DNA of 62,888 nt, filler included, from 9 parts of 9 records of this genome joined end to end with filler, not necessarily neighbours in it; one strand, 5' to 3'; positions 8,361 through 62,888 are shown, counted from the whole stretch's first letter. A program made the numbers and translations. Notes: generated from the letters alone by a model not told the origin.

Positions 8361-10013
8361 TTACTTCAACTTGGACTCTTCGTGAAGAAGCACATACCTA
8401 ATGCAATACCGGTGAGGATCCAGCACATTGGGTGCTATAGGTGACTCACTTGCGAGGACTTTGACCAAACTGAAGTGCATCGCCCTCAAAAAGCTCGTAG
8501 TACCTGTGAAGCACACCGTGATCATACAATTTTCAGCTCCAGCTTACTTCAGGGGCTCGATGCGCTTGTTGTTGAGAAATGTGCCGTTGGTGCTGCCAAG
8601 ATCCATCAAGTATGGCACCACCACCTGCAGTCGAGTCAGACGCTCTCCAGCTTGGCACGCACTTTTGTTTTATCGAGCATTTTTGCGCCCTTCAAGTCCA
8701 CCAGCCGAAAACACAAGACCTGAGCCAGACCCACAATCAGCCAGAATTGAGGTCGACAGCACACCGCATGCTGGCTTGATACCGATGGGTTGTCACTCGG
8801 GATGTGGCAGACCTTGCGTTCTCGACTGCGACCCAGCCGGTCATCGCCCAACCGGCTGCCAGGCCACCCGATCAGGTAGTGTGATAGCCGGTGGATTGGA
8901 ATCGGCTCAATCTGCTCCTCATTCTGCAGCCCAGCTGAGCCCAGCCTGCCACTGTGCACACCTTGAACACGTAGAGCCGCCAGCGCTTTGACGGCAGCCG
9001 AGCCTCTGGGGGTACCTGCCGCCCGGCTCGGACTGCACTGGGCGAGAGAGCTTGCCGTGTACTTGATGACCACTCCGTTCACAGTGTTGGTCTCCGCAGC
9101 CAGCACCCCTGTGGGTTTGAAATTGGGCTGCACGCCAACAATCAGCGTGACCCACCCCCCACGACTTACTTTTTCCTTCTTCACACCATCCTCATCCTCT
9201 TCCTCTTCCTCATCCTCATCCTCTTCCTCCTCCTCCTCGCCAGAAACATCATCGTCGTCGTCTGCCTCCTCCCTGCCATACACAAAGTCCTGAGTGTCAC
9301 ACAGGGCGCACACGCACTCCGCGTTCGGCTCGGGCTTTGGCTTTGCCAGCTCGGCGGCCACGGCTTCCATTGCGAGCACAGATGCGCACGGCGCAGCCTG
9401 CCTGCCAGCTCAGCCAGCCATCTCACAGGCTCGCGTACATTCGCCCCGAATCCCCGCGCCTGGTCCCGCTGCACCTCTGCAGCATCCTCCCGTCCGTTCC
9501 CTGCACAGCAGCTCGCCCCGCCCTGTAGACACCGGGGCACCGATCAGTTTCGGCCCTTCCTCGTTCCGCGGCTCCCACAGGTTGCCAGCCTTACCCCGCT
9601 TGACCCATAGATCCGATTCGTTCTGCCCAGCAGGCTCAGTCGCCGCTCTGCTGCCGCGGCGGTCGCACCCGGGACTCTTTCTCCCGGTTGGCCGCATACC
9701 GCGGATCGCCCAGCCGCTCCGCCCACGAGTTGTCCATCGGGCCGTCCGGACCGTCCATCGCTGGGTCGGGCCGGTGCGGGGCGGCTGGCTGCCTGTCCGG
9801 CCGGCCGCCACGGCTGTCGTTCCCCCTGTCGCGCCGGCCGTCCCGATCGTCATCGCGGTGCCTCTCGCGCCGGCTGTCCCTGCCGCCTCGGTCGTCCCGG
9901 TCGTCTCGACGCCTCCGGCGTTCCCGGCTGCGCGAGTCGGGCGAGCGTGAGCTGCGCCCCCACCCGGTGAGCTGCATATCCCAGCCGCACCCTCACCGAC
10001 GCCGATCAGACAT
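8361..10013 (-). CDS. SNIP1: SNIP1/Pml1/DAWDLE-like FHA protein (RES complex), multi-exon
   Basis: RD/RS-rich N-terminus and acidic tract, then spliced PNFKPTGVLAAETNTVNGVVIKYT-VPPEARLPSKRWRLYVFK, IHRLSHYLIGRE, SSQHA, PYLMDLGSTNGTFLNNKRIEP and YVLLHE. Confidence 0.92.
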
Positions 10014-10015
10014 TG

Positions 10016-10115
10016 NNNNNNNNNNNNNNNNNNNNNNNNNNNNNNNNNNNNNNNNNNNNTTAATTAATTAANNNNNNNNNNNNNNNNNNNNNNNNNNNNN
10101 NNNNNNNNNNNNNNN
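10016..10115. other. Artificial contig linker
   Basis: Same N44-TTAATTAATTAA-N44 pattern. Confidence 0.99.
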
Positions 10116-10376: not shown

Positions 10377-11011
10377 TCATTTGAATAATCCGCTTGTCAT
10401 GTAGCACACTCTGCTGTCCAGGCTCGCCGGCCTGAGCGTGCCCTCCACTCCACAGGCACTGACATACGTCCCGACCACCACCAGCAACAGCACCAGCACC
10501 AGCAGCGTCGCTAGCAGTACCCCGCCGTCCACGTCCTCGTAGGTCGCCGGCTTGATAGGACTCAGCGGGGTCAGCGGGGGCGACACCGGTGCCCGCGGGG
10601 TCATCGCCGGTCGGCGCGACACCGCCGGGCTGGGATCCGGTTTGGGGGTGGGGGCCGGGGTGGGTGGCAGCGCGTCTCCCTTGTCTAGGGCCTCGATGCT
10701 GCTGCTCAGGAAGGCTGCGGCGCTCGGTGTGCACTTGTAGCTGTCGCGAATGTACTGCCGGCCGGGCTCAGCGGCTGGTGGGCTGGGCCGGGCGCCTTGA
10801 GTGTGAGCAGCTCGCAATTGGTGATGCCCTGGCCGTCCTCGGCCTCCTTTATGAGCAGCCGGGCTGCCGGAGCTCAGGCCGGTGGCGGGCGGGCGGTACC
10901 GTCGGAGACGCCGAGCTTGGCATCCTGCTTGGAGCCGGCGATGTTGTCGGCCGCCTCGAGCAGCCCGCGGTCGTACTTGACCCCCTTGATCTGCTTGTAG
11001 TACGACGACAT
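10377..11011 (-). CDS. Uncharacterised small-domain protein (YY..I.G.KYDR.LL type) with Pro-rich linker and C-terminal TM helix
   Basis: Spliced MSSYYKQIKGVKYDRGLLEAAD...DARLLIKEAEDGQGITNCELLTLK-YIRDSY using two introns, one GC-AG (10755-10795). TM segment VLLATLLVLVLLLVVVG. Confidence 0.7.
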
Positions 11012-11972: not shown

Positions 11973-13648
11973 CTAGAAGTTGGCGGCTCTGTCGAGCATT
12001 CGATCCTCCAGCTTGATATCCACGGGCTTCACTCGAGTCTTACTGGATTCCTCAACATCGGAGACAGTCTCCGGCAGCGGCTTTCCAAGAGTCTCAGGCA
12101 GCACCAGCAGGCTGGCCCCGGCCACGATCGACACCACGCCAAACACCACCAGCGGCACCCAGGCCGCTACCACATTCAGCCTGACCTGCAGCCGCCAGTC
12201 ATTCATGGCCAGCGCGCCGCTTACCACAGGCCTGGCAACAATCCCTCCAAGCCGCGCAGAGGTGGAGCACAACCCCATTGCAAGCGAGCGCACCCCAGTC
12301 GGGAAGAGCTCGGTGGCGTACACGAAAATCACGGCAAATGATGCCGAGATCCCAAACTTGCCAATCATTGCAGCAGCGGTGGTTGAGCCACCCTCCGGCA
12401 GCACGGCGCATGCAGCGCAGGTGCACCCCGCCAGAGCCATCGCGCCGGAGATTGTGCCGCGCCGGCCGATGGAGTCCGTTAGGTAGATGGCCAACGGAAG
12501 CGCCACTAGCTCGAGCACGCTCAGTATGCTGAAATTGAGGTACAAGTCGCCCCAAAGATTGCCGGCAGACAGGTTTAAGCCATAAAACACAAAACCTGGC
12601 CGCCGGTCAGCGCGGCGGGAGGGCCAAGCGTACTGTTTGAAAGCCACACAACCAGCATCACCAGCAGGCGGAGTCGCAGCACGCCCGAGCAAAGCTCGGC
12701 CAGCCCGGCTTGGGGGATTTGGTCGGGCGGCCGAAGGCTGAAGCCGTCTGGGAGGCTCTTGCCGTTGCCAGCCGCCAGCTGCTGGATCACCTCGTTGGCC
12801 GGGTCCAGCTTTCCTTGCGAGAGCAGCCAGCGTGGCGACTCGGATACCATAGTGAGCATCAGAAGATAGAGCAGCGGCGTAAGCCCAATCAGCCCGGTGA
12901 GCGTGCGCCAGTCGCGGCAGTAGAAGGCCAGCGGCACGAGCAAGACATTGGCCACAGCGAACACCCCGGCCTGCCCGACCCCGGTTGCAGCCTGCCAAGG
13001 CTGTCCGATGAACTCAGAGGCCAGCACGTAAGCCACAATGCTCATCCCGCCCACCCCGATCCCGACCCCGATCCGGCAGGCGGTGTATGTGCCCAGATCC
13101 GCGGCCACCGAGCACCCAAGGCAGCAAGCGGCGGTGATGACCGCCCCGAGCGCGACCGCCCCCTTCCTGCCCATCTTGCCCCCCAAGTATCCGATCAGCG
13201 CGGCCCCAATCGCAAACCCGGCAAAGTAAAGCGAGTCGACCGCGGAGGCCTTCCAGCCGTCCTCGCAGAACAGGCCAAAGGTGGCCCGGATGGAATGGGC
13301 AGGGTTGACGATTTCGAACTGGGCCTCCGAGCCGCACGGCACATTCCCGTGCTGCACCTCCCCGCCAGGGTGGCGCCACTGGACGTCGCTATTGATGAAC
13401 ACCTACCCAACGGCTTGGCCTACTCGCCCCGGGGGCAGGCGGACCATCCCAAGCGTGCAGAAGGCCGAGGGGATCCAGACCGAGGTCACCATCAAGTAGT
13501 GCAGCCGCTGGTATGGCCCGAAGTGCCCGACCACATCGAGCACCGCATCCACGTCAGACCGGGCCGGCACCACCGGCTCATACTCCCCCGGCTCGCCCGC
13601 CGGCGCGTCCGGCTCGTCCAGCAGCGGAGCCCGCCGGTCGGAAGCCAT
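11973..13648 (-). CDS. MFS transporter, SLC22/organic cation transporter family, multi-exon
   Basis: VGHFGPYQ, FGLFCED, GRK loop, ESPRWL, YATELFPTGVRS and LPETLGKPLPET, plus multiple TM helices. Confidence 0.92.
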
Positions 13649-13787: not shown

Positions 13788-13887
13788 NNNNNNNNNNNNN
13801 NNNNNNNNNNNNNNNNNNNNNNNNNNNNNNNTTAATTAATTAANNNNNNNNNNNNNNNNNNNNNNNNNNNNNNNNNNNNNNNNNNNN
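13788..13887. other. Artificial contig linker
   Basis: Same linker pattern. Confidence 0.99.
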
Positions 13888-16862: not shown

Positions 16863-17164
16863 CGCGGGCATTAATTGGGCTTACTGTGCACCAGTAGTAA
16901 TAAAGGCGTTTGACTACCACTTGCAATTAATATCGACATAGAGGATGTGGATAACTTTTACTTGTAAAACAATCAGCTAATAATAGTCGAAGAGTCCCAA
17001 ACAATATTAACGTATAATTATGGTCCCAAAACTATTCACGGCTCCGCTCAGGAAAGTGAGACAAATCGTGGTTCGGAAAGTGACAAATTACCTGCTGAAG
17101 TAGACTGAAGTTCTATGTACTGAAAACTGAAAGAAAGGAGAGCACCCAGCGGCGGCATCCAGAT

Positions 17165-22026: not shown

Positions 22027-22586
22027 TCATTCTGCCACCGGCTCTGCTGCCGCAGCTGGCTCTTCTCCCCCAGCAGCCGGCTCCACTGCCGCCTCCTCCT
22101 CTACCGCGGCCACCTCCTCCACCGCGGCCTCCTCCGATGCAGGCGCGGCCTCCTCCACTACGGGTGCGGCCTCCTCGGCCACCTCCTCTGGCGCCTCGCC
22201 GGCAGCTTCCACCGGCTCCTCCGCTGCCGCCACCGGCGCTGCTCCCACCGCGTCGCCGGACATTCCCTGCCAGCGATCGGCCTGGGACGCCGGGCGGGCG
22301 CACCCCGGCGGCCTGCTGCCACTTGTCGAAGCCGGCCATGAACTCGTCCTTGTCTATGAACCCGTCGTTGTTGGTGTCCATGTCCATGAAGAAATCAAAG
22401 ATCTGCCCCGCGTCGGGCCAGGCCGCCAGGCCGGGCACCTTGTCGTCTGTAAACCCGTAGTCGCCCAGCTTGCCGGACACGCACAGCGGCGTGAGCTTGC
22501 CATCCTGCCGCCCCCGCTGGCCGGGCCGTCGGTCGGCCAGGTGCCTTGTTCAGGTCCAGCTGCTCGAACACCGCCTCGGGGTCCAT
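22027..22586 (-). CDS. EF-hand pair protein with Glu/Ala-rich tail
   Basis: Loop DLNK-DGKL is restored by GC-AG intron 22505-22544; second loop DTNNDGFIDKDE. Confidence 0.85.
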
Positions 22587-25284: not shown

Positions 25285-26190
25285 TCAGCTGTCTGCCACT
25301 GATACCACCGTGTTCAAATGCTGATTCTTCTCTATGCATTGGGTCAGGATGAAGAACGCTAGGTTGGGATAGGTCACTTGGTGCCCGTTGGTCGGTGTAC
25401 CGCTCGTACTTGTTCTCAACCCGCCTGCCACCCTCTCAATTAAAGCCACACTCGGCACCGCATGCACACCGTTGACTGCCCCTTTGCCCTCGGTGCTCAC
25501 CAGCTCCGGCGCTCTCACTATGGTCCAACTGATCTTCGGGGGCGCCAACTTCTTAATCTGACCCAGCCTCAGCCCCGCAGCATAACCAGGGCACCGCAGC
25601 CTCCATCCGTAATAGGTCAGCATGCACCTGCAGCAGGCAGTACCTGCGCCCCCCGCAGTCAGCCGCCCGCTGGCCTGGTCCGCCCCGGCACCGCGCAAAA
25701 GGGTCCTGGAACAGCTTGGGCAGCCCCGGGTCCGCAGGTTCGCACCCGACCGAGCTAACCGCCACAACCCGGCCGGGCCGCTCGGGGCTCGTGAGCACCG
25801 CGCGCACCCCGGTCGATACCACGTGGCTGGGCGCGTCGGTTGGTCCCACCCCGAGCACGCAGACGGTGCAGTCGCTGCCCTGGAGCGCCTGGGACACTGC
25901 AGCCGGCTGGGTGGCGTCGCCTTGGAGCACGGTCAGCTTGGGGTGCGTCAACGGCATCCGGGCCGGCTCGCGGCACAGCGCGCGGACTGCGTGGCCGCGG
26001 GCGAGCGCCTGGTGCACCAGCTCGCGCCCGGTGCGGCCGGTGGCCCCGAACACGGCGATGGTGCGCTTCGCGGCCGGCGGGGGCGGGGTGAGCCAGCTCT
26101 GCTGCCGCCGGTGAGCGGGCGCGGCCGGGCCGGGGTCGCCTGCTGGTGCTCGGCCGAGTGAGTTCCGAGCAGCCACTGGAGCAACCCCAT
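25285..26190 (-). CDS. NAD(P)H-binding oxidoreductase (flavin reductase/BLVRB-like atypical SDR)
   Basis: IAVFGATGRTG, GHAVRALCR, GDAT, VSSVG and WTIVRAP; several short introns. Confidence 0.85.
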
Positions 26191-37631: not shown

Positions 37632-38736
37632 ATGCTTGTTGAGCCTGCGCTGAAGTCCCGGGTGGCGCTGACCGGCGCGTTCGCGGTGCACCAGGTCACC
37701 AGGCCGACCGCCGGTGCCGGTCAGTCGGTGCCACGCCCGGCGACCGGGGCTGTGCACCCGGTGGACGACCAGGCGCTCGGCCGGATGCTAGCGGTAGGGG
37801 GACCCCAGGCGGTCGATGGAGCGGGCGGGGCAGGATCTCGGGGATGCCGCGATTGCAATCGAGGCCGCGGACTTCTCGGGCTGCGAGTGCATCAGCGCCG
37901 CCGGCGTCCGCCAGTTTGCAGAGGCCAGTCGGGGGCTGCGCGAGCTAAATCTGGCCGGCTGCATCGGGATGGATCGGAACAGCCTGGTTGCAAATGCACG
38001 GGCACCCAGGTGCGTGCTCCTTGTCTATATCTTAGAGGGCTCGGCTCACTGGGGCATCACAGTGGCCGACTTATTCGAAAAGGAGCATTTGACTCAGAAG
38101 ACTCGATTGCTCGAACAGCAAGCGGACGAGCTGCGGAGCGAGATGGCGCACACGTTGCGGGCAAAGACCAAGCTGCAAGTGGTTGACCTGAGCTGGTGCA
38201 CGGCGCTCACGGATCGGGCGGCCGCCATGCTTGGGCTGCTGCCGCTCTTGCACCACGTCAACCTATCACACTGTGCGCAGATGAGCGACGAGGCTGTCCG
38301 GTCTCTTGCCAAGCTCACCAAATTGAGCTGGCTGAGTATGAGCCACTGCATACAGGCAGGCGCCCGTAATGCTCTATTCCTGACCCAGTGGCAGCTGACT
38401 TACCACTCGTGCCGGGCGCTCAAGCAGTGTGAACAGCTGGCCGTGCTCGACTTGAGCCACTGCCCCAAGCTCACAGATGTCACAGGCTTTCGGGACCGTG
38501 GGCCAATCGCTTCGCTCAACGACAAAGGCAACCTGCAAAGCGTCAATCTGGATGGCTGCCCGCTGCTGACTGACAGCCAGATAGAGCGCCTGTCGGGTGC
38601 GGGGACCCACCATGAGCTGCGCATCACCAGTCCGGAATGCACCGGGCGGCTAACCTCTGAGCAGCAGAGCTCGCACCGTTTGCGGTACTCGAACAAGCAC
38701 CACGAGTGGCGCCGGGCGGCCGGGGTGGAGCTATGA
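37632..38736 (+). CDS. FBXL/AMN1-type cysteine-containing leucine-rich repeat protein
   Basis: Repeats of L..L.LS.C..LTD: LQVVDLSWCTALTD, LAVLDLSHCPKLTD, LQSVNLDGCPLLTD. Confidence 0.85.
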
Positions 38737-39830: not shown

Positions 39831-40328
39831 ATGATGAGCGACGGTGTGAGCCTGTTGGGTAGGGGCCGACCGGCTGGCCAGGCATCCTGGCCGAGTATCC
39901 AGACAGTGACATAACGTTGGAGCACCGGCGATACAGCCACGTGCCGCTCCGGTTGGTCGGGCTGAGCCGATCGGGCAGCTGAGCATGGAGTCGATCGGGC
40001 GGCTGACTGCGTTCATGGAGGGCCGGCTGCCCACCGACCTGGGCACGGTGCCCGGGATCGGCGAGCAGGGGATCAAGGTGGGGCTCGGCCGAGAGCGGGT
40101 GGCAGGGGGGGCAGATCCTGAACAAGCTGGGGATCGACACGCTGGACCAGCTGATGGGACAGTTCCTGGTGCTCGACCGGGACACCTCCAGGATGCTTAA
40201 ATGGTGCCCGGTCGGCCGCTGTTGGCCCCAACTCGGGCAGGTGCGAGGAGAACAGAATAGGCGGGGCCCGGTTTGCCGAGACGGTGGTGCACGCGCTGGC
40301 CATGAAGGCGCACTCGCTGCTCGACTGA
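39831..40328 (+). CDS. BANF1: Barrier-to-autointegration factor (BAF)-like protein; may extend further 5'
   Basis: Removing 37-nt introns 40078-40114 and 40204-40240 gives AFMEGRLPTDLGTVPGIGEQGIKILNKLGIDTLDQLMGQFLVLDRDTSRMLKW, matching BAF AGIGE...GFD....LGQFLVL..D....EW. Confidence 0.8.
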
Positions 40329-42794: not shown

Positions 42795-44975
42795 TCAGAT
42801 ATAAAACATCTGCTCGTGTGCCATTTCGCCATGATGCCCATAGGTGGCATTGGAGGTCTTGATCACAGTCAGATCGAGCCCAGTAAGGTCCGGTGGAGGC
42901 TCCAGCCCGTAAGCCGCGTCGCCCCACAGGCATGGCGGCTGTGCAATAAAACCTGCCCCCCACATCGAGTTCATGCGCCTGTTGGGCTTTATGTACCAGG
43001 CTCGTCGTAGCGGCTGTCGTCAATGCGCCCAGTTCCGCCGTAGATTGGCCGCTCCTCGCAGATCAGCTCACCAGTGTGGTTGTTCACTAGATTCATCGAG
43101 AGGCAAGTCGGCGCGTGGCAATGAACTGCACTGCACGCTCAGCCGGACCAGATGGGGTGGCTCACAGTGGGCAGCCACCAGTTTCCCCTGGCCCTTCATC
43201 AGCCCGGTGATTGTGTGCACCCAGTGGCCGTCCGGGCCGCGCGAGCAGCCAGCCACCCCTTCGGCACACTTGGGCACATCGAACTCGGCCCCCGACCTGA
43301 ACCACACCAGTCATCGGGTCCAATTACGCAATCGGATTAAGTGCGTACCCGGACGGCCCAGCCCCGACGTCGTAGCCGGCCCCGCGGATGATGCTGTGGT
43401 GCGAGGCCGGGGTGTGGTTGGTGGCCGGGGTGTACTCCTCGAACCAGAACCTGAACTTGAACTGGTACTTGAGTGGCTGGTCCGGCCACGGGATCGGCTG
43501 GTCAGCGTCCAGCAGGCTCCACATGTGGTGGCAGCTGAGCTGGCCGCCAACGTAGGTCCTCACGTCGCAGGTCGGGTTTCGCTGGACAAGCAGGTCGCCG
43601 CGTGGCTGGGGCGCACAGCGATTGGTGAATGCCACAGAGCCGGAGCCGGTGTCAGCAGACTCTTTCTGCTGGATGTACTCGATCGTGCCCGACTTGTACT
43701 GCCCGAACGGGGCCGGCTTCTGGGCGCAGACGCAGATCGGCTGACCGACTGCTAGCAGGAGCACCGTACTGATCGTCTTAGTCTTGTGGTACCCGAATTG
43801 AGGGCTGGAGCCGACTGCATTGATGAACGGCAGCTGGAGCGCACTGGCCAGGCTGAAGCTGAAGAGCTTGCCCTGGAGCGGCCGGGAGAGCACCACTGTC
43901 CGCAGCCCGGCCGCCTCGGAGCTTCTGAGCACAGTCAGGCTCGGGGCGAGCTGCTCTCCTGCTGACTGATCAGCTAGCTGCCTCTCACTCACGTTCCCGT
44001 GTCCGTCCACGATGATTGCCCACGGCCGGTCTTTCATAGCCGAGGCGTTGAACCCTACACCGAACCAGACGTCCGCTGGGCCGGTGAGCGTGATGGTGGC
44101 CTTCTGGCTGTCAAGCTGCAGCTCAAGCTCAACTAGCGAGCTTGCTGCCCCGGCCACAGCTGATCCAGCCAGTGCAGCCTGCCCACAGCTGGCCGTCGAG
44201 CCAGCCTTGTTGAACAAGATTGCCGGCTTGCCGGTCTGATCAACAGAGACGGAGCAGCCAGCCGGCAGGCTGCTGTTGCTGGCCACAGCGGTTGGGTTGC
44301 TCCCGCCGGCCAGCTTGTCTCCTGCTGCGAAGCACTCCTCGGCACCTTGGATCTGGTGCTCGCACCGCCCACTCGAGGCCAGCGCATAGTCGCCCGCAAC
44401 GCTCTTCCGCACCCTGCGCCAGGCTGAGCCCGGCCTGTGCCGCCGGCTGCCTGGTGGTGACGGGGCACTCGAGCAAGCCCGAGTAGAGCGCCTCGGGCGG
44501 AGCCAGCGAGTTCCGCGGCTGCGGCCCGGGCACAAACCGGCCGCCGGTCAAGTTCATCTTGTCCCGGTTCCAGGCTGCCCCGCACTCGGCCGGGCGCAGG
44601 GGTGGGCGCACTGTCGATCTGCATTGGGGTTATCTGGAGCTGGGTGGGGGACAAGATCAGCTGGGCCTGCCCAGGCGCGTAGCCGTGGAACGACTTGCGC
44701 ACCTCCCCGCCGTTGGCCGCCCCGAAGCTCTGGTGGGTGGGCACGGGGCTCTGGGGGGCAAGGTCCTCCACCACCCAGGCCTCGCCTTTCCAGGGCTCGG
44801 GCACCCCGTGACCCATGGCGGCCCGGCGGGCCATCTGCCCCGGGTCCAGCCGGCGCTTGACTGCGCGCGAGTGCTTGCCCACCATGTTGCTCTCAAAGTG
44901 GTGGTTGTACGCCACATTGATAGGGAGCGAGACGTCCCCCTGGGCAGTGCGGCGGACTTGGTCGAGCTCGAACCC
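42795..44975 (-). CDS. Copper type II monooxygenase-like (SURNod19/PHM-like) protein with internal DOMON domain; 5' truncated
   Basis: YNHH, GGEVRKSFHGY, SGLLECP, DOMON-like WFGVGFNASAM...GYH, spliced HFHCHAP, PIYGGTG and HHGEM. Confidence 0.6.
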
Positions 44976-45227: not shown

Positions 45228-46222
45228 ATGGGGAACAAGCCGTCTAAGTCGGGGGGAACCCGCCGGGCGATGCAGCAGGACCTGAATCGGGTCGCCCAAG
45301 AGATGGCCACTCCGAGGTCGGTGGCACGAGCTCAAACCGTGCTCAAGGCGGCCGAGGCCGGCGACACGGACGCTGTACGCAGCATGCTTCAGAAGAATCC
45401 GGAGGCAGTGCTGGAGGCCAGGGACAAGGTACCCGTGGGCCAGGCGAGGAACGGCTCACACTTGGGGGGGGCAGTACGGGGGGCAGACAGCGCTGCATGC
45501 GGCTGCTTGGAATGGGCGGAAAGCGGTCGTAGAACTGCTGCTGGCGGCCCAGGCCGACGTCAACGCCGAGACCCAGGTGCGCAGGCCGGAGGGAACGGAT
45601 GCTGGGCTGACAGAGCGGGTGGGCAGAACCGGCAGCCGGCGCTGCACTACGCAGCCAAGCAAGGACACACCGCGGTGGTCGAGCTGCTGCTGGCCGGCCG
45701 AGCCGACTTGGATGCCAAGAACGACGTACGCCCCCGCGCCCGTCGGAGCGGAGGGAGTGCCGGGCTGAGAACGGGGGCAGCGTGGAAACACGGCTCTGCA
45801 TCAAGCTGCGTCCTTCCGGCACCCAAGTACCGCAGTGGTCGAGCGGCTGCTGATGGCGAACGCCGATATCAATGCTGTTAACAATGTGTGGCCGGAGCGA
45901 GCGCCAGTGAGCTGAGAGCGGGTCGGCTGGGCAGCTCGGGGACACGGCGCTGCATCAGTCAGCCTTCGAAGGGCACACCGATGTCTTGAAGGTGCTGCTG
46001 AAGGCCAGAGCCGATATCGATATAAAGAACAAGGTGGCTGGCTGGAGCGCTTGTTGCTGAGCCGAGGGTGCCAGGCCGGGGAAACTGCACTCGATCGCGC
46101 TCAGGGGAGCACGAAAAGGGGCAACCGCAGCAAGGCCGTGCTGCGCGCGGTGAGCTCGGCCAAGGCGCCACGTGCCTCAATCAGGGGGGTGTCAGGCGAA
46201 AGATCTCAGAGATTCACTCTGA
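45228..46222 (+). CDS. Ankyrin-repeat protein with N-myristoylation motif, about one intron per repeat
   Basis: MGNKPS start; spliced TALHAAA, PALHYAAKQGH, TALHKL, TALHQSAFEGH and ETALD. Confidence 0.88.
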
Positions 46223-48093: not shown

Positions 48094-49498
48094 ATGGACT
48101 CCCGAGAGTTCGCGTCTCGGGTGCGGCGGCGCCGGCCGTTTGTGCTGCGCCGGTGGAGCTGGCTCGAGCAGGACTCGCCCTGGCGCTCGTTGTCGGCCCT
48201 CCGCCGGCTGCTCGGCCCCGCGACCGACCGGCGAGTGGATGTAGCCTGCACGGCGCCCGGGAGCCCATTTGCCGGAGACCCGCGCAAGCACCAGAGCGTG
48301 AGCCTGCGCCTGGCCGATTTCCTGGACGTAGTGCACGCCGCCAACACGGGCGGCTCGCACTGGGCACTCGGCCGCAGCCTGCAGTTTTATTTGTGCCAGG
48401 CGCCTGTCCCCTTGGCTGGCCCCCCCCTGAGATGCTGGCAGTGCTGCATCGTGAGCAACGAGCCTGAGATACCGGCGGGACTGCCCGAGCTGGCGGCGCA
48501 CCTGCCGTTCCCCAGCTGGATGACCGGCCGCGGCCTGAGCCGGGCAAACCTGTGGGTGTGCGCCGATCAGAGCACCACCACCGCGCACTACGACGGGACC
48601 GACAACGTTCTGCTGGTCACAGCCGGGGCCAAACGGGTCGAGTTGTGGCCGCCGTCGGCCCGGACCGCGGTCCCGGTCTGGTTTGAGGCGCCGAACCACG
48701 CCGAGGGGCCACCGCGCTCTCCCCCGGTGCGTACGGTACTCTTGGAGGCAGGGAGTGTGCTGTGGATCCCTGAGGGCTGGTGGCACAAAGTGCACAGCCA
48801 GCCGGGGACGGTGGCGGTGAACCTGTGGAGCCGCTCGCTCGGGCACCGGCTGGGCAAGCCGTCCGGGCTGATTGGGCGCGGGTGTGTGGACTACTATGTG
48901 CGCGTGTTGCTTAGCCGGCAATTGAAGTCTGCCAAGGCGCGTCACTGTCATGCAACAGCCCGCAAGGCGAGGGCCAACCTGCGCAGGCGGCGATTGGAGA
49001 CTCCGCGGGCGGTGCGGCGGCGACAGTGGATGCTAGGGGCGCGCGCGCCGCTTTGGGGAGGGACTGGGGCTGTGGTGGAGGGGTTGGAAGCACTGGGTGT
49101 GCCGGGGCGCCGTCGGAGCTGACTGTAGGGCTAGGTCCGAAGGGGACGGTACGGCTGCTGCGCGCAATAATGAAGCACCGGGCTGAAGTGTGGCCGCGGC
49201 TGGTGCGTCGTATGAGTCCAGTGACTGGTGAGAGCTCTGCCGTTGATAATATTGTTACGCGCTCACTTTGCTGCTTGCAGCCGAGCTGATGACTTGCAAA
49301 TGGGAGGCGTTAGACTCTAAGACGCCGCTTGCCATGAAACGGCTCTATGAGCAGCTGTTCGCCAACGATTCTGATGGAGCACTCCGGTCGCGGCTGCTCG
49401 CGTTGCGTGAAGAGCTCTCGTGCAAGTTGTGTCTTGAGTTCCTCGAAGGAGCCTTATGTGGGGGGCGGCGGCTTCGGATCAAACGTGCGACTAGCTAG
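48094..49498 (+). CDS. JmjC (Cupin_8) 2OG oxygenase
   Basis: NLWV, TTAHYD, GAKRVELWPP and LWIPEGWWHKVHS...VAVNLW; 3' exons joined by short introns. Confidence 0.9.
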
Positions 49499-49590: not shown

Positions 49591-51835
49591 TTACACTCGC
49601 ACACCATCCGGCTGCGTGATCAGCGACAGCAGTTCGTCTGCCGTGCCGCCAGTGGCTGTGGTCACGGTTCCGCACATGTCGCAACACACATACACTGCCC
49701 GCTCCGCCCACTGTATCGACGCCCCACATGCCCAGCACTCAGTCGGCCTGGCCGCCCTCTGCAGCTCAAACGCAGCTATCGCCCGCGCCCCTGCCCCCAC
49801 TTCCCGCCGCGTCAAGCGGGCCACACGCACCAACAGTCGAGAGCGGAGGCGCCGACGGCTCTGCGGCCGGCAAGAGCTCAGACGGCGGCTGCTCCCCGGA
49901 TCCCAGGCCGACCAGGTGAAGCACCGCGTGCTCCACGCTGCCGTGGTGCTCCCCGAGCGCTTCGCGCGCCTCGCTCTGCACCAAGCCGTCAATTGGAGCA
50001 GTAGGCCGGCTCGTGCCTCGGGAAAGCCCATGGCAAGCAACTGCTCCAACGGGCCTGCAGGCTCCGCGGGGGGGGGGGCGCCAGACCGGCGGGGGCAGGC
50101 ACGGGCTTGGTGGTCCCGAGCAACTCGGCAGCCGCGCGCTCAATGTCCCAATCAGACCGGGCGAGTGCACCGGCCGCTTCGTCCCTCCCGAACCCGAGCC
50201 TAGTCAGCTGGTCGGTCAAGTTGGACTCAGACGGACTCAGCTCGGGCTCGGGGGGCAGGCCGCGCCCGGCGCACTCTCCCTGCGGGGGGGTGATCATGGC
50301 CAGCAGCTCCGGCGCATCCAGCAGCCCGGCGTCGAGCCCGCAGTCGATAGGCTGCCCCAAGCTTGGATCTTGCTGGTGACCCTCGCTGTTGAAGACCTCG
50401 TCAAGCTCCTGCGGGCCCACTATCTCCTCCTTAGCCACCGCCAGCCGTGAGCCAGTGCACGGCGAGTCCAGCTCCTCGGGCGGCGCCGGCTCGCCTGCAG
50501 CCAGAGTCATTCTGAGCCACAATCGAGGGCGAGTCGCCTCTCGGGCTGAAATTATCCAAGAACTGAGCGAGCTTCTGGTCGATCTGCGCCGCGACCGGCA
50601 CCGGTGGGGCCTGGCCGGCCTCGAGAGCTCGTCGGGCCTTTTCTATAAACAAGAGGATGTCCGTGAAGGACGGCCGGGCCTGATGCGACTCCGCCCAGCA
50701 CTGCAGGCCAGCACTGAGCACTGAGCCGAGGGCCTAATCACCTGCTCGATTAGGCTGCGGACATCCGCCGGGCAGCTGGCCGGTATCGCCGGCCGGAGGC
50801 CCTCGTTGGCCACAGCGTGCGATATCTGGACGCTGGACATCCCGCGGAACGGGATCTCGTTTGAGGCCATCTCGAACGCGACCATACCGAAACTATACAC
50901 TGGAAGGCTCTCAACACCCGGCCAGCCCGATCAGCTCACCGTCAACGGCCTCCGAGTATTTCTTGCCAGACATGAGCTCCGGCGCCATCCAGGCCGCCGT
51001 CCCTATCTGCCCCCTGCGCTCAGCTGAGCCAATCGCAGCCCGTGTACCTGGCCCGTCATCACAACGGACGTGTCGTGCGACCGAACCCTCGAGAGCCCGA
51101 AATCGCAGACCTTGAGCTGCCAGTCCGAGGCCACCAGCAGATCTGGCCCGGCGGCTCGGCAAGGCCCTGGGCTGGGCGGCCGACTGAGCGATTTGAGGTC
51201 TCTGTGAATAACCTTCTTGCTGTGCAGGTAGGCAGTTCCAGAGGCCACTTGATGGCAGAACTTGAGCAACCAGTCGTGCTGCCCGCCGTCGGCCGGCCCG
51301 CCCCCGGTGGGCTGCCTTCATTTTCCGCCGTTGAACGTGCAGTGCATTGAACAGATTCCCCCTGGAGACCTGCCCGAACTCACTGCCGGCCGCGACCGGC
51401 CCGACCAGCTCGGTGATCATCATGGAGGAGCCGTTGGCATCCACCGCCGCCCCGTACAGCCGGACAATGTTCGGGTGCGACAGCGTACTCATCTGCGCCC
51501 GGGTCGTCGCACCGCGGGCTAAGCGAAACGGCACCAGTGCGAGCTCGCGCATGAACGCTAGCTTCTCAGGGTCGTTGTCCCGGAGGGTGCACTTGAGCTG
51601 TTTGACCGCCACCGCCATCGGCCCGGCCCCCGGTCGATGCCACTCGGCCTGGAACACCACCCCGAAGCTGCCCTCGCCCAGCTTGGCGCCCATCTGGATC
51701 TCGGAGCGCCCGATCCGCAGGAAGCTGTCCGGCGAGCTGCCCCCCGCGCTCAGCCGCCGGGCGGCCCGGAGCTCACTGGTTGGTGTCGGACGACCAACCG
51801 TCCGGCAGCGCCGAGGCCACCATCAGGCCGTCCAT
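49591..51835 (-). CDS. TKL (Raf/MLK-like) protein kinase + 2 UBA + LSD1-type zinc finger
   Basis: GEGSFG, VAVK, HPNIV, HRDLKSLN, DFG, GTAAWMAPE, DVYSFG and RPSF. UBA motifs LTRLGF...AL...WDIERA and LLAMGFPE-SEAREAL. Finger CWAC...VCCDMCGTVT. Confidence 0.88.
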
Positions 51836-54680: not shown

Positions 54681-54743
54681 GGTTGCTCGACAAAGGGGTA
54701 TCTGGACGGCACAGCGTGGTGCAACGGAATTTAACGGACCACG
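54681..54743. promoter_or_regulatory. Putative 63-bp bidirectional promoter with tandem YAACGG
   Basis: CAACGG at 54722 and TAACGG at 54732, between divergent ATGs. Confidence 0.5.
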
Positions 54744-56423
54744 ATGCAGATGAATGAGAGGCGGGCACTTTCATCTGTGCTGCTCTGGCTCAGCTGCTGC
54801 TGCTGCTGCACAGCGCTGCGGGCCACGGAACTGGCCCGGACTCAGATCTTCAGAGCCGCCAAGTTCTGCCCGGGGCACAACCCACCCCCGCCCGCCCCGC
54901 CCCACTTCCCGGGGCTCCGGCTGGCCGCGTGCAATCCGACCGACCAACGGCAGCGCTGGGACGTCTCCCCGTTTGTGCCCGGTGTGAGCGACCGGCAGCT
55001 GTCTCCCCGCGCCGACCACAGCGCGTGCGTGACGCGCGGCCTGGAGGGTGCGCCACTGACTGTCCAGAAGTGTCGGGGATATGCCGGCCAGCTGGACCCG
55101 TTGCAGCAGTGGAAGTTTACAAGCGATGGCATCCTCGCCACAGGAGACGGTAAGGGCTGCGCGGATGTCGGTACCGGCCCAACCACCGCGGGGGTGCTTT
55201 ATGCAGCTTTCCCGTGCAAGCAGGCTCCCAACGAACTGTTCAATTACAGCGTCGCGGCGGGCCTGCTCTCGTCAGGGTACAGTCGTAGCGCTCCGCTTTG
55301 CGTCGTGCAGGACGAGGCGATGGTCAGTCTCGACGCGAATAATTGCATTCCGTGGTCGATAGATCCACAAAATACTGAGCCCGGATGGTACTTTGATGCA
55401 GGAATGTGCGGAATGGTGCTCACGTCCAACGACACGCTGATAAGCATCCACGAGGGTGAGAAGTTTCACCACCAAGACGACAACAACCGGATTGACATTG
55501 TGATTCGCCGCTCGTTTGACCAAGGCAGGACTTGGCAGCCGTGGCAGCTGGTGCATACGGGCTCGAATGCTACGCATCAGGTGACCATAGGTCAGGGGAC
55601 GCCGGTGTTGGATCAGCACACCGGTCGACTGTGGCTGTTCATGACCCGCAACAACACATTCCTTCTGTTGACCTACACCGATGATCATGGCGCCACCTGG
55701 GCGCCTGTGCGGGACATCACAGCGGCATCAAAGCCCGCCAGCTATGGTTGGATAGCCCCAGCCTTTTCCGGAACCCAGCTTGCGAGCGGGCGGCTTGCAG
55801 TGTGCGCCGACCACATCGTCGGTCAGTGGACTGCGTACCCAATCACACACACGATCAGTTCTGTGATCACAAGTGATGATCATGGTGCTTCTTGGCAGTG
55901 GCAGCCGGCTGGCTCGCCCGACGGCGCTGAGATGAACGAGTGTGCGATCGCGGTGCTGCCTAACAACTCTCTCGTGATGAACGCTCGCAACTATATTGGG
56001 ATCGATAACCACACGGTCAAGAGGGCCATCATGTGGAGCCATGACGAGGGCCGAAGCTGGATCGGGCCGTATCTCGACCCTGACTTGCCGGATCCTGTGG
56101 TGCAAGGTAGCATGGTGGCTGGACTCCACACGCCAGCTGCACTAGGAATCGGCCAGCCGTTGTTCTTTACAAACGCACATTCAGAATGGGACCGAGCCAA
56201 TGACACGTTGATGATGTCGAGATCCGGTGGGGCAGGCTGGGAGCCGTTGCTGCAGCTGCAACACGGTTGCTCGGAGTACACTGGGTTGGTTCAATTTAGG
56301 GATGGCAGAATCGGGGCCGGGTTCGATGATGGCGGTCCTTTCCCTCCGAATTATACTCCTGGCAGGAACATATGCAAGATGATGACCAACAATGAAACCT
56401 TTGTGCTAGTTGGTTTGACCTAG
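54744..56423 (+). CDS. Secreted ricin-B lectin + GH33 sialidase-fold protein
   Basis: Signal peptide; QRW/QQW ricin repeats; Asp-boxes SFDQGRTW, TDDHGATW, SDDHGASW and SHDEGRSW; motifs NEC, MNAR and EY. Confidence 0.85.
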   Translation: MQMNERRALSSVLLWLSCCCCCTALRATELARTQIFRAAKFCPGHNPPPPAPPHFPGLRLAACNPTDQRQRWDVSPFVPGVSDRQLSPRADHSACVTRGLEGAPLTVQKCRGYAGQLDPLQQWKFTSDGILATGDGKGCADVGTGPTTAGVLYAAFPCKQAPNELFNYSVAAGLLSSGYSRSAPLCVVQDEAMVSLDANNCIPWSIDPQNTEPGWYFDAGMCGMVLTSNDTLISIHEGEKFHHQDDNNRIDIVIRRSFDQGRTWQPWQLVHTGSNATHQVTIGQGTPVLDQHTGRLWLFMTRNNTFLLLTYTDDHGATWAPVRDITAASKPASYGWIAPAFSGTQLASGRLAVCADHIVGQWTAYPITHTISSVITSDDHGASWQWQPAGSPDGAEMNECAIAVLPNNSLVMNARNYIGIDNHTVKRAIMWSHDEGRSWIGPYLDPDLPDPVVQGSMVAGLHTPAALGIGQPLFFTNAHSEWDRANDTLMMSRSGGAGWEPLLQLQHGCSEYTGLVQFRDGRIGAGFDDGGPFPPNYTPGRNICKMMTNNETFVLVGLT

Positions 56424-56608: not shown

Positions 56609-56708
56609 NNNNNNNNNNNNNNNNNNNNNNNNNNNNNNNNNNNNNNNNNNNNTTAATTAATTAANNNNNNNNNNNNNNNNNNNNNNNNNNNNNNNNNNNN
56701 NNNNNNNN
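56609..56708. other. Artificial contig linker
   Basis: Same linker pattern. Confidence 0.99.
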
Positions 56709-59818: not shown

Positions 59819-60768
59819 GGGCCGGAGAGATATGGCGTTGGCCAACTCATGAACTGGCAAAGACTACTGTCGTGTGGCGTGTCGTGTGGCGTGGACGAGC
59901 CGGTGCAGGCATGGAGCTTTTACGACCAGTTGCAAGCCGATCAGTGCTGATGTCAGTGCTGATGGGAGCCTCGGAATTCGTCGGGTCTCGAGCTCTGCAG
60001 TTATGTTCTGGATCTGTGGGCGGTCGAATAGCGAGATGAGCGATGATAGACATTGATATGATTTACTCGTATCATTTTGTCGAGCAAATGAAATGTGCAC
60101 GTTCGGGTTGTCATGAAGCATCATCACTTTTATGAATCATTAAAGCCCTCGTTGACAATGAGCAAGTGGCAGCACTCTAGCGGGAACGGCCCATATTCAT
60201 AAAACTGCTCGATTTCGGACTCCATGAACTCGGTAGTCACATAAACTTTAAACCCAGGGTGTACTTGATCGCAATCCATCAGCCCATCAAAGCTCCGCCT
60301 AGACAGTAGTTTGTCCCGATCTCTGGGCTCACTTGAGGCCAAGATCAGCCAATCACCTGAAACGTTTAACTCTGGTGACCCGATGGTGAAGGCTGAGGCA
60401 CTCAGGAAGCTGCTCCAGGAGGCCATCGGCCTCGGCACACATGCAGTCGCCTGTACAGTGCTCATCGATCATCCGCTCAAGGAACTGCCAACACGATCAA
60501 ATGGCAACTTCTCCAGATGGGCCACGATGCGCGACGACGAATCATATTGAACGAGCCGAGCTTTGAGCCGAGCCCGCCTGCCTCGACACTTCTAGTTCTT
60601 ACACTCACAGAGTTGGCTGATGGACGTGTCGTGATAAGCTCACCAAGCACAAGACTTGGACCTGCGACCTGTCACTCAGTGGTGCATGTGCATGGATCCA
60701 GACCTGGACCTGCGATACGATCCAGGCATCCCACGACGACAACAACAGCGCCCGTCCACACAGCGCCA

Positions 60769-62888
60769 ATGAAGAAGCGAAAGCGCGAGACCGGCAGCCC
60801 GGGGGAGGGCCTGTGGACCGACCGGTTCAAGCTGTCGCCCGGCACAGTCCGGGCGCTCACCGAGAGCCTGCAGTTTACCGCCTTCACCCCGGTTTGACGC
60901 GCGGGCGGCGGACCGGAGCTGGGTGCAGGTGCAGCTCAGCTGCCTGCCGCATCTGCTCAAGGGGCGCGACGTGGTGGCCAAGGCGCAGACCGGCTCGGGT
61001 GCACGGCGCTGCCGGTGGCTCGGCCCAGCCCGGCGGGCAGGCAAGACGGCGGCCTTCCTGATCCCGGCGGTGGAGCGCGCGATCAAGTTCGACCCTGACC
61101 TGCGCAAGGCGAGCCGCCGGAGCCCGCTCGGGCGACTGGGCGGCGGCAGGGCAAAGTGTCGGTGGTGGTGATGGCGCCCACCCGCGAGCTGGCCAATCAA
61201 ATCGAAGGCGAAGCCCGCAAGCTGGTCCTGTTCCAGCCGCTGGCCGTGAGCCTGGTGCCCGGCGGCTGCGGCGGCGGGCGAGCGGTGGGTAGGCGGTGGG
61301 CGGGTCGCGCAACACGCAGGACAATATGCAAGCCATCGGGAGGGCCGACCCGGATATCCTGGTCGGCACACCTGGCCGGCTGAGCGACCTGCTCGAGCAC
61401 ACAGGCGCTCAGAGCCGGCGCTGCGGGTTGAGCTGTGCGGCAGGGCTGCACAAGAGGATCCAACCAGGCTACCTGAAGATGGTGGTGCTGGACGAGGCAG
61501 ATAGACTGCTCGACCTCGGGCTTCTGGACACTGTGCGAGCCATCCTGTGAGCTCAGTGCATGCTCCGCTCTTACGCGGCCGCAGAGACAAACTTCCCGAC
61601 CCGGGCAAGCGGCAGACGGTGCTCTTCTCGGCTACACTCCCGGACAAGGCGCGCCCGTGGCTGGCGGCCCGAGCCCAGCCTGGGCTCCAGCTGCATGCAC
61701 TGGCCGAGAGTGCGCTCAAACCGGCGTATAAGTTCATAGATCTATCGGCCCCAGCCCAGACCGCCATTCTGGTCAGTGTGGGCTAGAGCAGCTGGTGTGA
61801 GCCGACAGCAGGTGAAGCAGCAATACGTGGTGGTGGGGCTCGGTCATATGGCCGCTGCACTGGTTGCGTTGATCCAGTCCGAGGTTGAGCAGCATTCAGA
61901 ACACAAAATCATCGTGCATTGTCCGTCGGGGTGCCAGCTGAATTGTGGCAGGTGTTCTTCCCTGCAGCACGGCTTGCCCAGTTGTTCGCCGAGCTCTTTT
62001 ATCATGCTGGGATCAAGGTAGACTTGCCCCTGCTGATTGTGCCCAACCACTGGGGTGAGGTGCTCCAAACGCACTCCAAGAAGGCTCAGACTCACCGCGA
62101 TCTAATCGTCGAGACCATGCAGCAAAGCTCGCGGGTGGTGCTGTTTGCCAGCGACCTGGCCGCGCGTGGCCTGCACTTTGACAATGTATGCGGCCCAGTG
62201 GCTATGCGTTGCTTGAGCGTTGGAGGCAGGTCAGCCTGGTGGTGCACTGCCATGCTCCGCCGTCAAGAGAGCAGTACATCCACCGCACGGGCAGGACCGG
62301 CCGTGCTGGGGCCTCTGGCAGGAGTGTACTGCTGCTCAGCACTCCGGAACTAGCAATACTCAAGACTGAGCTCAAAGGGCTGCCCATCGAGCAGCCTCGA
62401 GATGACTGGATGGCTCAAGAAGGCTGGTTCAGTGAAGTGAAGCCCAAGGTGCCACTGGCCAGGGATTTGTACAGGCTTAAGGATTTCCTTGTTTAGGTGA
62501 AACGTGCGCTGCGGAAAATGGATTTACCCACTCTCAGTCTTGGATATCAAGCCTGGTTGGGCGCTTATTGTGCGCTGCGCAAGCTGCTGGAATGGACCAA
62601 TGAGGAGCTTGTCGAGCACTGTAATGCGTGGATTGACGCGTTGTTGCAAGGCGCCGAGCGGCCCAGCTTGCCAGTACGAGCAATCCACCGAATGGGGTTA
62701 GGCGCTGCATTGGTAATGTGGTATTAAATGGTCTGGTGCAGGCTAGCCGGAGTAGATGGGATCAAGGTGCATGGCTCGCTCAAACCGGAAGCTCGTGAAG
62801 CTAATGATACTAAGAGCTCTAATAAGAGCAGCGTGCCTAAAAGCTCTGATAAGAGCAAGTTCAACAAGGGTGGAGGGTTCACCAAGGG
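60769..62888 (+). CDS. DEAD-box RNA helicase (Mss116/plant RH31-like), intron-rich, runs off the window
   Basis: Spliced AQTGSGKT, PTREL, TPGRL, DEAD, SAT, ARGL, HRTGRTGR and YQAWLG. Confidence 0.93.

Follow-up and report, generated by a model that had tools for sequence, protein, structure and literature searches.

Frequent GC-AG introns of about 40 nt in the DNA of a probable GC-rich marine protist

The major spliceosome handles GC 5′ splice sites, in which the remaining consensus is stronger (PMC3167603), and GC-AG introns make up 1.2% of introns in plants (PMC6310983). Far higher shares are given in the literature for GC-rich protists. In Emiliania huxleyi 56% of the donors among 241 curated junctions are GC, nine GC junctions having been verified by RT-PCR (PMC4028052), and the GC-donor share is put at about 56-60%. 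GC-AG introns account for 14-17% in Aureococcus and 14% in Pelagomonas, which was ascribed to GC content (bioRxiv 10.1101/2024.10.30.620910); an older estimate for Aureococcus anophagefferens was nearly 40% (PMC4028052, bioRxiv 10.1101/2024.10.30.620910, PMC3167603). A high share, such as the one described below, is already documented for GC-rich protists, so it is not the anomaly that the original prediction supposed.

The 12 intervals and the proteins they interrupt

Twelve intervals proposed as GC-AG introns were analysed in the window (the whole stretch of DNA under study, 62,888 nucleotides). As proposed, every one of them, read on the coding strand, opens with GC and closes with AG, at a length of 37-42 nt. 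Eight shift the frame, their lengths (40, 41, 40, 38, 37, 41, 37 and 41 nt) not being multiples of three; four are in frame (39, 42, 39 and 42 nt), and 11 follow an exonic AG, the exception being 9016-9055, which follows CG. Excision of each joins open frames. The donor hexamers are GCAAGC, GCGCCC, GCACCT, GCGACC, GCAGCC, GCACGA, GCGAGC, GCAGGC, GCGCCT, GCGCTC and GCGCGC. The predicted introns, with a thirteenth that the original prediction had not listed, are:

9016..9055, minus strand: 40 nt, phase 0, SNIP1-like FHA gene (human SNIP1 alignment)
10755..10795, minus strand: 41 nt, phase 0, gene without family assignment (frame logic)
22505..22544, minus strand: 40 nt, phase 0, EF-hand gene (frame change, gene-finder score)
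26102..26139, minus strand: 38 nt, phase 0, between a start-codon exon and an NmrA-like/NAD_binding_10 exon
38356..38394, plus strand: 39 nt, in frame, LRR gene (repeat periodicity)
44414..44450, minus strand: 37 nt, phase 2, gene C, from a large eukaryotic family that has no Pfam model (homolog HMM, guide proteins)
48400..48441, plus strand: candidate only, 42 nt, in frame, JmjC/Cupin_8 gene (intron-model score 9.8)
49976..50016, minus strand: 41 nt, phase 0, interrupts UBA domain 2, kinase-UBA gene (profile, paralog register)
50495..50537, minus strand: probable additional intron, 43 nt, kinase-UBA gene (gene-finder score, frame change)
51279..51315, minus strand: 37 nt, phase 0, kinase domain (ortholog P0170)
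61109..61149, plus strand: 41 nt, phase 0, DEAD-box helicase gene (homolog HMM)
61405..61443, plus strand: 39 nt, in frame, phase 1, DEAD-box helicase gene (homolog HMM, guide proteins)
61649..61690, plus strand: 42 nt, in frame, phase 0, DEAD-box helicase gene (homolog HMM, guide proteins)

Homology defines the junction exactly at four sites (9016, 44414, 51279 and 61649). The exon upstream of 9016..9055 ends at residue 247 of human SNIP1 (5z56_X) and in the downstream exon the second residue pairs with SNIP1 residue 249, giving a gapless junction at 247|248 with a change of frame. In gene C, an HMM of 17 homologs scores 645.5 bits with 44414..44450 spliced, 611.7 with the GT alternative 44414-44468 and 186.9 unspliced, and the interval remains the choice of all six guide proteins when any of the 16 donor dinucleotides may be used. 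Aligned with splicing to P0170, an ortholog derived from transcripts, 51279..51315 gives a gapless junction and is likewise still picked with all 16 dinucleotides permitted. In the helicase, retaining 61649..61690 lowers the homolog HMM score by 19.7 bits (403.9 to 384.2), the spliced junction aligns without a gap, and four of six guides pick it with GT or GC donors (three of six with all 16).

Homology gain or frame logic is the basis for six further sites (61109, 61405, 49976, 26102, 10755 and 22505). Retention of 61405..61443 costs 13.2 bits (403.9 to 390.7), and three of six guides pick it with GT or GC donors (one of six with all 16); the retention penalties of both in-frame GC introns are comparable with that of an in-frame GT intron of the same gene (17.2 bits). 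With 61109..61149 the helicase scores 403.9 bits spliced, 56.9 retained and 378.2 with the GT alternative 61070-61149, its exact borders being less sure because the position is a variable loop. The exon 5′ of 49976..50016 stops at UBA profile positions 6-16, the frame changes across the intron, and the spliced product can be aligned without a gap with the protein's own UBA domain 1, a paralog register. By frame or start-codon logic, 10755, 22505 and 26102 have no usable GT donor: reading through 10755..10795 (intron-model score 10.6) meets a stop, and the search space holds no GT...AG alternative; across 22505..22544 the frame changes, the score is 21.2, the best GT alternative, of 67 nt, reaching 11.3, and the junction, judged by eye, restores an EF-hand-like loop; and ahead of the Rossmann motif there is one ATG only, in a different frame, 26102..26139 scoring 9.8 versus -2.9 for the best GT alternative. 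Repeat register applies at 38356..38394, where removal yields three consecutive 25-residue LRR units with a common cysteine-containing motif and retention leaves one 38-residue unit. At the probable additional intron 50495..50537, the reading frame has to shift from the kinase exon to the UBA1 exon; the model with a GC donor reaches 12.3, against 5.5 for the best GT alternative, with AG upstream and an intron-model score of 7.8.

At 11 of the 12 sites, then, homology or register indicates at the protein level, not that of RNA, that the segment is absent at that place, and interpretation of these 11 as GC-AG introns is supported by homology, frame or repeat register. At the candidate 48400..48441 the Pfam and PDB alignments stop short of spanning the site. 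Every G|G[TC]...AG| intron fits a GG...CA register shifted by one base equally well; homology sets the product, not the cut. As judged from the predicted products, the analysis shows that the segments must be missing from the protein, at the given borders or in an equivalent register, and we infer that their removal is by spliceosomal splicing.

The alternative that the gene models are artefacts, nearby GT donors being the true ones or the in-frame segments being coding, with a GC share of about 1%, is very improbable. It draws on the four of nine gene-finder GC calls in anchored genes that proved wrong and had GT alternatives, on the 2.2-fold excess of GC over GT dinucleotides in this DNA (13994 versus 6387, GT counted as its reverse complement AC), and on 48400..48441, where the frame stays open if the segment is retained. 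Against it, GT alternatives for 9016, 44414, 51279 and 61109 are absent, or cost 26 to 34 bits, or face a residue-exact junction, and retaining 61405, 61649 or 38356 adds 13-14 residues missing from homologs or repeat units. For 11 of the 12 sites the artefact reading is already largely refuted.

The share of GC-AG introns and controls against chance

In the seven genes of this one 63 kb window that have outside anchors, GC-AG introns make up seven of 39 introns, or 18% (95% CI 7.5-33.5%), a share biased upward because four of the seven genes were chosen for holding a site of the original prediction. It is far above the 1% level, as had been claimed (P ~4e-7 against a rate of 1.2%). The estimate of about one intron in ten was right that GC-AG introns are common here; the measured share is somewhat higher. 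The GT-AG comparators, some of which are supported by the gene finder only or by few guide proteins, are:

8625..8662, minus strand: SNIP1-like gene, FHA profile positions 32-53 in the following exon
8720..8764, minus strand: SNIP1-like gene, three-frame reading, FHA profile
8826..8867, minus strand: SNIP1-like gene, three-frame reading and FHA profile positions 2-24 downstream
8924..8961, minus strand: SNIP1-like gene, frame change between the SNIP1-matched exon and the next
12596..12633, minus strand: MFS transporter gene, Sugar_tr matches in two frames, gene finder
13403..13444, minus strand: MFS transporter gene, profile match, gene finder
40078..40114, plus strand: BAF-like gene, gene finder, profile matches
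40204..40240, plus strand: BAF-like gene, SAM_BAF match extends to 40204
42953..42996, minus strand: gene C, 1/6 guides, gene finder
43126..43165, minus strand: gene C, 3/6 guides
43297..43348, minus strand: gene C, 1/6 guides at the exact border, donor position uncertain
44575..44611, minus strand: gene C, 6/6 guides, HMM
45429..45474, plus strand: ankyrin gene, gene finder only
45577..45626, plus strand: ankyrin gene, between Ank repeat matches in differing frames
45726..45780, plus strand: ankyrin gene, Ank profile end (33/33) at 45725
45886..45934, plus strand: ankyrin gene, Ank profile end (33/33) at 45885
50701..50741, minus strand: kinase gene, spliced alignment to P0170
50900..50939, minus strand: kinase gene, spliced alignment to P0170
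51007..51047, minus strand: kinase gene, P0170; ties with a shifted GG register if 16 donors are allowed
51143..51184, minus strand: kinase gene, 42 nt, P0170
51370..51405, minus strand: kinase gene, in frame, stop-free, P0170
51493..51534, minus strand: kinase gene, in frame, stop-free, P0170
51737..51776, minus strand: kinase gene, gene finder only
60892..60928, plus strand: helicase, homolog HMM alignment, guide proteins
60999..61040, plus strand: helicase, 6/6 guides
61246..61292, plus strand: helicase, HMM, guides; alternative GT donor at 61255
61547..61584, plus strand: helicase, 6/6 guides
61772..61811, plus strand: helicase, borders +/- a few nt, GT in both cases
61914..61951, plus strand: helicase, 6/6 guides
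62018..62059, plus strand: helicase, in frame, 5/6 guides, retention -17.2 bits
62186..62229, plus strand: helicase, 6/6 guides
62449..62496, plus strand: helicase, guides; alternative donor at 62437 also GT

Some introns are stop-free and in frame, and so concealed within open reading frames. Five of six differences, on one low-depth metagenome contig, fall within 50701..50741. Among sequencing runs, none of RNA was found to contain this sequence, and two of metagenomic DNA yielded short contigs only. The gene finder's overturned GC donors are that at 50893, rejected in favour of 50900..50939 by the alignment to P0170; those at 45738 and 45901, replaced by 45726..45780 and 45886..45934 from the Ank profile ends; and that at 40195, replaced by 40204..40240 from the SAM_BAF match.

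An intron model trained on 34 GT introns only (positions +3 to +6, branch motif, last 8 nt and length) gives the 12 GC sites scores of 6.1-10.6, to which the GT-derived branch profile contributes; the leave-one-out median of the GT introns is about 6.8, and 54 of 7994 control GC...AG pairs inside long verified exons (0.68%) score at least 6. Outside verified exons there are 20 intron-like AG|GC donors, against two inside, and 17 AG|GT donors, again against two, the decoy donors GG, GA, CC, CG, CT and TG giving 4-8 outside and 0-7 inside. The ab initio gene finder is blind to donor class, returning 25 'introns' when CC is allowed versus 21 for GC.

Donor context and intron anatomy

The anchored introns fall in a narrow length range of 36-55 nt. 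Their 3′ ends are G-rich (G at -4 in 36 of 44) and carry no pyrimidine tract, the pyrimidine fraction being 0.42 over -15 to -5. A branch-like motif, C-T-G-A-S, has its A 11-22 nt from the intron end, according to a profile learned from GT introns. The window has a GC content of 56-66% in 4 kb bins, about 61% overall, and the introns 71-79%.

Exonic AG at -2/-1 precedes six of the seven anchored GC donors versus eight of 32 GT donors (Fisher p=0.005). The original prediction had found no compensating donor consensus, which fails on the exon side and holds for intron positions +4 to +6: G at +5 is present in 5/12 GC sites versus 21/32 GT introns. That the bases after GC vary freely was overstated, since +3 is a purine in all 12 GC sites (versus 27/32 GT introns) and +6 is C in nine (versus 21/32). 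It is highly probable, on this sequence evidence, that the GC-AG introns are ordinary U2-type introns of a GC-rich marine protist, about 40 nt long, with C at +2 in about one in five. A C at +2 would cost one U1 base pair, a loss that could be tolerated because the GC donors keep the exonic AG and a +3 purine. The exonic AG probably permits splicing from GC donors; since +4 to +6 are no stronger in these donors, unlike the textbook case, it is possibly only part of the story. Strong, closely spaced 3′ signals within a short intron (the CTSAS-like branch motif, the G-rich tail and CAG) may also contribute, and mutation pressure toward GC may have changed T to C at +2, as suggested for other GC-rich protists.

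A lineage-specific change in 5′ splice-site recognition, in which position +2 would hardly matter owing to a variant 5′ region in U1 or U6 or to the dominance of intron length and 3′ signals, is improbable; it overlaps with the U2-type interpretation and differs in holding GC donors to be neutral, not merely tolerated. It would be in keeping with the weak, non-textbook donors of the GT introns themselves (C at +4 in 18/34, C at +6 in 21/34, A at -2 in only 11/34) and with the tight lengths and G-rich 3′ ends, but standard U1/U5 pairing predicts just such a dependence of GC donors on exonic AG. In the window no snRNA gene was found. A related proposal, that these introns are defined mainly by length and a G-rich 3′ signal (GGGGCAG) read by a remodelled U1/U2AF, in a telonemid or some other poorly sampled heterotrophic flagellate of marine origin, is unlikely. 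If the splicing code were altered, GC donors would be a by-product of a deeper change than GC drift.

Removal outside the major spliceosome, as U12-type introns, by euglenid-like excision through intron-end pairing, or as introner elements, is scarcely credible. Very short, GC-rich introns, some of which could fold, are in its favour; yet the U12-type donor motif, which like the branch motif of that class is highly conserved, occurs at none of the 12 starts, and GC and GT introns are alike in length, branch-like motif, 3′ CAG and preferences at +3 and +6.

Relation to known systems

Digestive hydrolases, and a best ortholog that comes from Telonema, suggest that the organism is a heterotrophic flagellate rather than an alga; from this one ortholog an affinity with Telonemia is tentatively suggested. 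Such side observations (the tiny introns, G-rich tails, hidden stop-free introns and the Telonemia hint) may outweigh the GC-AG share in importance.

Emiliania huxleyi, Aureococcus and Pelagomonas resemble this DNA in high GC content, in GC donors far above 1% and in keeping the AG acceptor. Trouble with gene prediction is also common to them and this DNA, because GT-only predictors mis-model genes. Pelagophyte introns, in contrast, average 103-177 bp in the sources cited above, against 36-55 nt here, and nine of the E. huxleyi GC junctions were verified by RT-PCR (PMC4028052), whereas the share here is inferred from the DNA of one window. In animal and plant GC-AG introns the C at +2 is offset elsewhere in the donor, as described in PMC3167603 and PMC6310983, a part that exonic AG and the +3 purine would play here. 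Compared with the approximately 1% of animals and plants, GC-AG introns are about 15 times more frequent in this DNA, and +4 to +6 are not strengthened. Very short introns are also found in ciliates, chlorarachniophyte nucleomorphs and Blastocystis, mostly in AT-rich genomes and with GT donors. These share with the present DNA narrow intron lengths near the lower limit of splicing, whereas the introns described here are 71-79% GC, have a G-rich 3′ end and frequently start with GC.

Gene content and the twelve GC-AG intervals

Pfam matches on 287 reading frames of at least 100 residues show that the 62,888-base window, with a GC content of 56-66% in 4 kb bins, carries eukaryotic nuclear genes (cathepsin L, GH67, GH2, a BNR sialidase that also has a ricin lectin domain, tubulin-tyrosine-ligase-like, MORN, ankyrin, LRR, TKL-type kinase, DEAD-box helicase, JmjC and others). 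The long, secreted-type digestive-enzyme frames (cathepsin L, a GH67 whose frame has a ricin-like insert, GH2 and the BNR sialidase with ricin lectin; 1824-4859, 35590-37620 and 54735-56420) have no detected intron, and housekeeping genes near them have one every ~35-50 codons. Across the 2 kb of 17116-19110 (-) each of the three frames contains matches to MORN repeats; this implies a putative MORN-repeat gene with many short introns that would add a dozen or so to any count. Eight identical patterns of 44 N, 12 bases and 44 N (4807-4906, 10016-10115, 13788-13887, 19148-19247, 26325-26424, 39604-39703, 44976-45075 and 56609-56708) resemble withheld stretches or scaffold gaps, and interrupt at least the GH67 reading frame. 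Small parts of the window are present in two aquatic or seawater DNA metagenomes, and in no listed RNA run. The contigs from the two DNA runs are short and of low depth, 17 from one and 8 from the other; among these 25 there was no informative coverage of any GC site and no relevant joint. A metagenome scan for close relatives with a MetE-like protein returned four loci, the best at 46% identity and none close enough.

All 12 intervals originally predicted to be GC-AG introns do start with GC and end with AG on the coding strand, at lengths of 37-42 nt, and removal of each joins open frames. The eight described as changing the frame do change it, and the four described as in-frame leave it intact.

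Homology and frame evidence at individual sites

Homologs were fetched with single exons as queries, and splice variants were compared locally. For the helicase gene, which holds three of the intervals, variants were scored with an HMM built from six full-length homologs.

Scores of helicase splice variants (gene at 60769-62888, plus strand)
Every intron removed: 403.9 bits
GC interval 61405-61443 kept in: 390.7 bits
GC interval 61649-61690 kept in: 384.2 bits
GC interval 61109-61149 kept in: 56.9 bits
Sole GT alternative for 61109 (61070-61149): 378.2 bits
Control, in-frame GT intron 62018-62059 kept in: 386.7 bits

Retaining 61405 or 61649 costs about as much as retaining 62018, so that both in-frame GC introns act as a genuine in-frame GT intron does. 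The helicase alignment has no gaps at 61649 and almost none at 61109 and 61405.

Interval 44414-44450 lies in a gene (42795-44885, minus strand) of a large eukaryotic family, with 1341 relatives at E<=0.001, 232 of them at E<=1e-30, in a search of 1.84 billion representatives, and with no Pfam match at E<=0.01; in the protein atlas it meets "hypothetical protein" clusters only, plus a weak DOMON lead. Scored with an HMM of 17 relatives, the unspliced reading reaches 186.9 bits; taking out the GT alternative 44414-44468 raises this to 611.7, and taking out the GC interval to 645.5. A spliced protein-to-DNA aligner written for this analysis picked the GC intron with six of six guide proteins, also with the donor left free to be any of the 16 dinucleotides.

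The kinase-UBA gene (49591-51835, minus strand) has a sole database relative, the one match among 2616 candidates, which is a Telonema subtile transcriptome protein (P0170; EukProt EP00656) with the same kinase and UBA architecture in the same order. Spliced alignment of the kinase domain to this protein gives seven introns, six GT and the GC intron 51279-51315, with conserved junctions free of gaps, and the introns are unchanged with all 16 donors allowed, except for one tied register shift. In the same gene, the exon upstream of 49976-50016 stops at UBA profile positions 6-16, and once the interval is removed the product can be aligned to the protein's own first UBA with no gap. Within the 41-nt GT intron 50701-50741 lie five of the six differences of a metagenome contig, including a +1/-1 indel pair; this fits non-coding status, at a contig depth of 2.3 (<5) that makes errors possible.

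At 9016-9055 the exon before the interval stops at human SNIP1 (5z56_X) residue 247, and the second residue of the exon after it matches residue 249, so that the predicted junction is exact to the residue; a homolog search with the SNIP1 exon gave no match, its candidates being crowded by an acidic tract. Removal of 38356-38394 leaves three consecutive 25-residue LRR units, and leaving it in stretches one unit to 38 residues. At 26102-26139 the sole ATG upstream of the Rossmann motif sits in another frame, and at 10755-10795 read-through meets a stop and no GT alternative was found. The best GT alternative to 22505-22544 is 67 nt long and scores 9.9 units below the GC model; by eye, we read this junction as rebuilding an EF-hand-like loop. 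Interval 48400-48441 is a candidate; the full JmjC reading frame aligns to PDB only downstream of it. PDB searches with the upstream exons of JmjC and of the kinase gave no useful match, and exon-level Pfam matches were too weak to fix most junctions.

Intron class, frequency and donor context

An intron model was trained on 34 GT introns only; its features are +3 to +6, a C-T-G-A-S branch profile whose A lies 11-22 nt before the intron end, the final 8 nt and intron length. The 12 GC sites score 6.1-10.6 with this model, against a leave-one-out median of ~6.8 for the GT introns, and a score of >=6 is reached by 54 of 7994 (0.68%) control GC...AG pairs within long verified exons. Among donors preceded by AG and scoring >=6, AG|GC occurs 20 times outside and twice inside verified exons and AG|GT 17 times and twice, compared with 4-8 outside and 0-7 inside for decoy donors. 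A signal-only scan without context was rejected as a standalone detector, its specificity being too low. Four further AG|GC candidates score within 7.4-9.4, and 50495-50537 is probably a real GC-AG intron.

Further candidate AG|GC introns (GT-trained model)
50495-50537, minus strand, candidate GC-AG intron
19312-19351, plus strand, candidate GC-AG intron
23593-23635, plus strand, candidate GC-AG intron
46141-46175, minus strand, candidate GC-AG intron

An ab initio gene finder was tried as a donor counter and rejected: it gave 20 GC among 54 predicted introns, with similar numbers for decoys (when GT plus one other dinucleotide was allowed, CC 25, GC 21, CG 17 and GG 16). Its nine GC calls in anchored genes comprised two that were exact, two of the right class with wrong borders, four overturned to GT and one that stays a candidate, and it overlooked the GC sites 9016, 61405 and 61649 as well as several GT introns that keep the frame. 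Because of the decoy-like numbers and overturned calls, we limited the count to introns of seven genes anchored by outside evidence (helicase 12, kinase-UBA 9, the 42795-44885 gene 5, ankyrin 4, BAF-like 2, SNIP1-like 5 and MFS 2). Seven GC introns against 32 GT introns make 18% of 39 (95% CI 7.5-33.5%), a figure from one window in which four of the seven genes were chosen because they carry a predicted site and some comparator GT introns have the gene finder or few guide proteins behind them. The probability of seven or more GC introns among these 39 at a 1.2% rate is ~4e-7. The GC-AG observation is real and the share high, far above ~1%, as had been claimed.

The accompanying claim that no donor consensus compensates for the C survives in part. 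An exonic AG stands before six of the seven GC donors in anchored genes (and 11 of all 12 sites, all but one as predicted); among GT donors it does so in eight of 32 cases (Fisher p=0.005). G is found at -1 in 12/12 GC sites compared with 20/32 GT, and a purine at +3 in 12/12 compared with 27/32. G at +5, by contrast, is present in 5/12 GC sites and 21/32 GT, and C at +6 in 9/12 and 21/32. Compensation is therefore located on the exon side and at +3, where the claim fails, and not at +4 to +6, where it stands. Altered 5' splice-site recognition in the lineage is a less probable source of the GC donors; an Rfam scan of the window, U1 and U6 included, gave no match at gathering thresholds. The donors are compensated in the way that would be expected, the major spliceosome is reported to process GC-AG introns (PMC3167603), and GC-AG abundance alone reveals no new splicing mechanism.

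Intron architecture and comparison with known GC-AG systems

Curated introns (e.g. 40078-40114, 51007-51047 and 44575-44611) are 36-55 nt long, with a median of ~41, and 71-79% GC. Their 3' end is a G-rich tail followed by CAG. Of 44 introns, 36 have G at -4, and every position from -5 to -9 has it in 23-28; over -15 to -5 pyrimidines are a fraction of 0.42, which indicates that there is no polypyrimidine tract. We know of no description of such a G-rich 3' signal. Lengths divisible by three occur in 13 of the 44, and so give no sign of being selected against; examples are 51493-51534, 51370-51405, 51143-51184, 62018-62059, 61405-61443 and 61649-61690, several of them stop-free. At least five in-frame stop-free introns lie inside open frames (GT 51493 and 51370; GC 61405, 61649 and 38356). 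Within long open reading frames such introns were detected only via homologs, and other "single-exon" frames of the window may hide more.

GT-only gene callers would split many of this organism's multi-exon genes, a large share of them, or put them out of frame, and in lineages of this kind GC donors together with hidden in-frame introns would lead to spurious inserts and truncations in the proteins called on metagenome-assembled genomes. The window may derive from Telonemia or a neighbour, a single-gene lead and no placement; protein-atlas taxonomy was uninformative. A literature search on Telonemia genome introns gave nothing on telonemid nuclear introns among the matches listed, and one on GC-AG plus short introns in GC-rich genomes found none.

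The share of GC-AG introns is put at ~1.2% in plants (PMC6310983) and ~1% in human, where U1 pairs less well with a C at +2 and the remaining consensus is stronger; much higher shares are described for GC-rich lower eukaryotes (PMC3167603). In E. huxleyi, GC donors are reported at 56% of 241 curated junctions, with RT-PCR confirmation (PMC4028052), and shares of 14-17% in Aureococcus and ~14% in Pelagomonas are given, compared with 0.32% for Aureoumbra, whose GC content is lower (bioRxiv 10.1101/2024.10.30.620910); across kingdoms the reported correlation with GC content is weak (PMC7072748). The high share in the window fits the published pattern of GC-rich protists. It adds a tiny-intron, probably non-algal lineage to the short list of those with abundant GC donors, and supports the view that genomic GC pressure drives T to C at +2 wherever an exonic AG can carry recognition. 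Less ordinary than the GC donors is the whole intron architecture (short, GC-rich, with G at -4 and no pyrimidine tract), and the possible taxon is also unusual.
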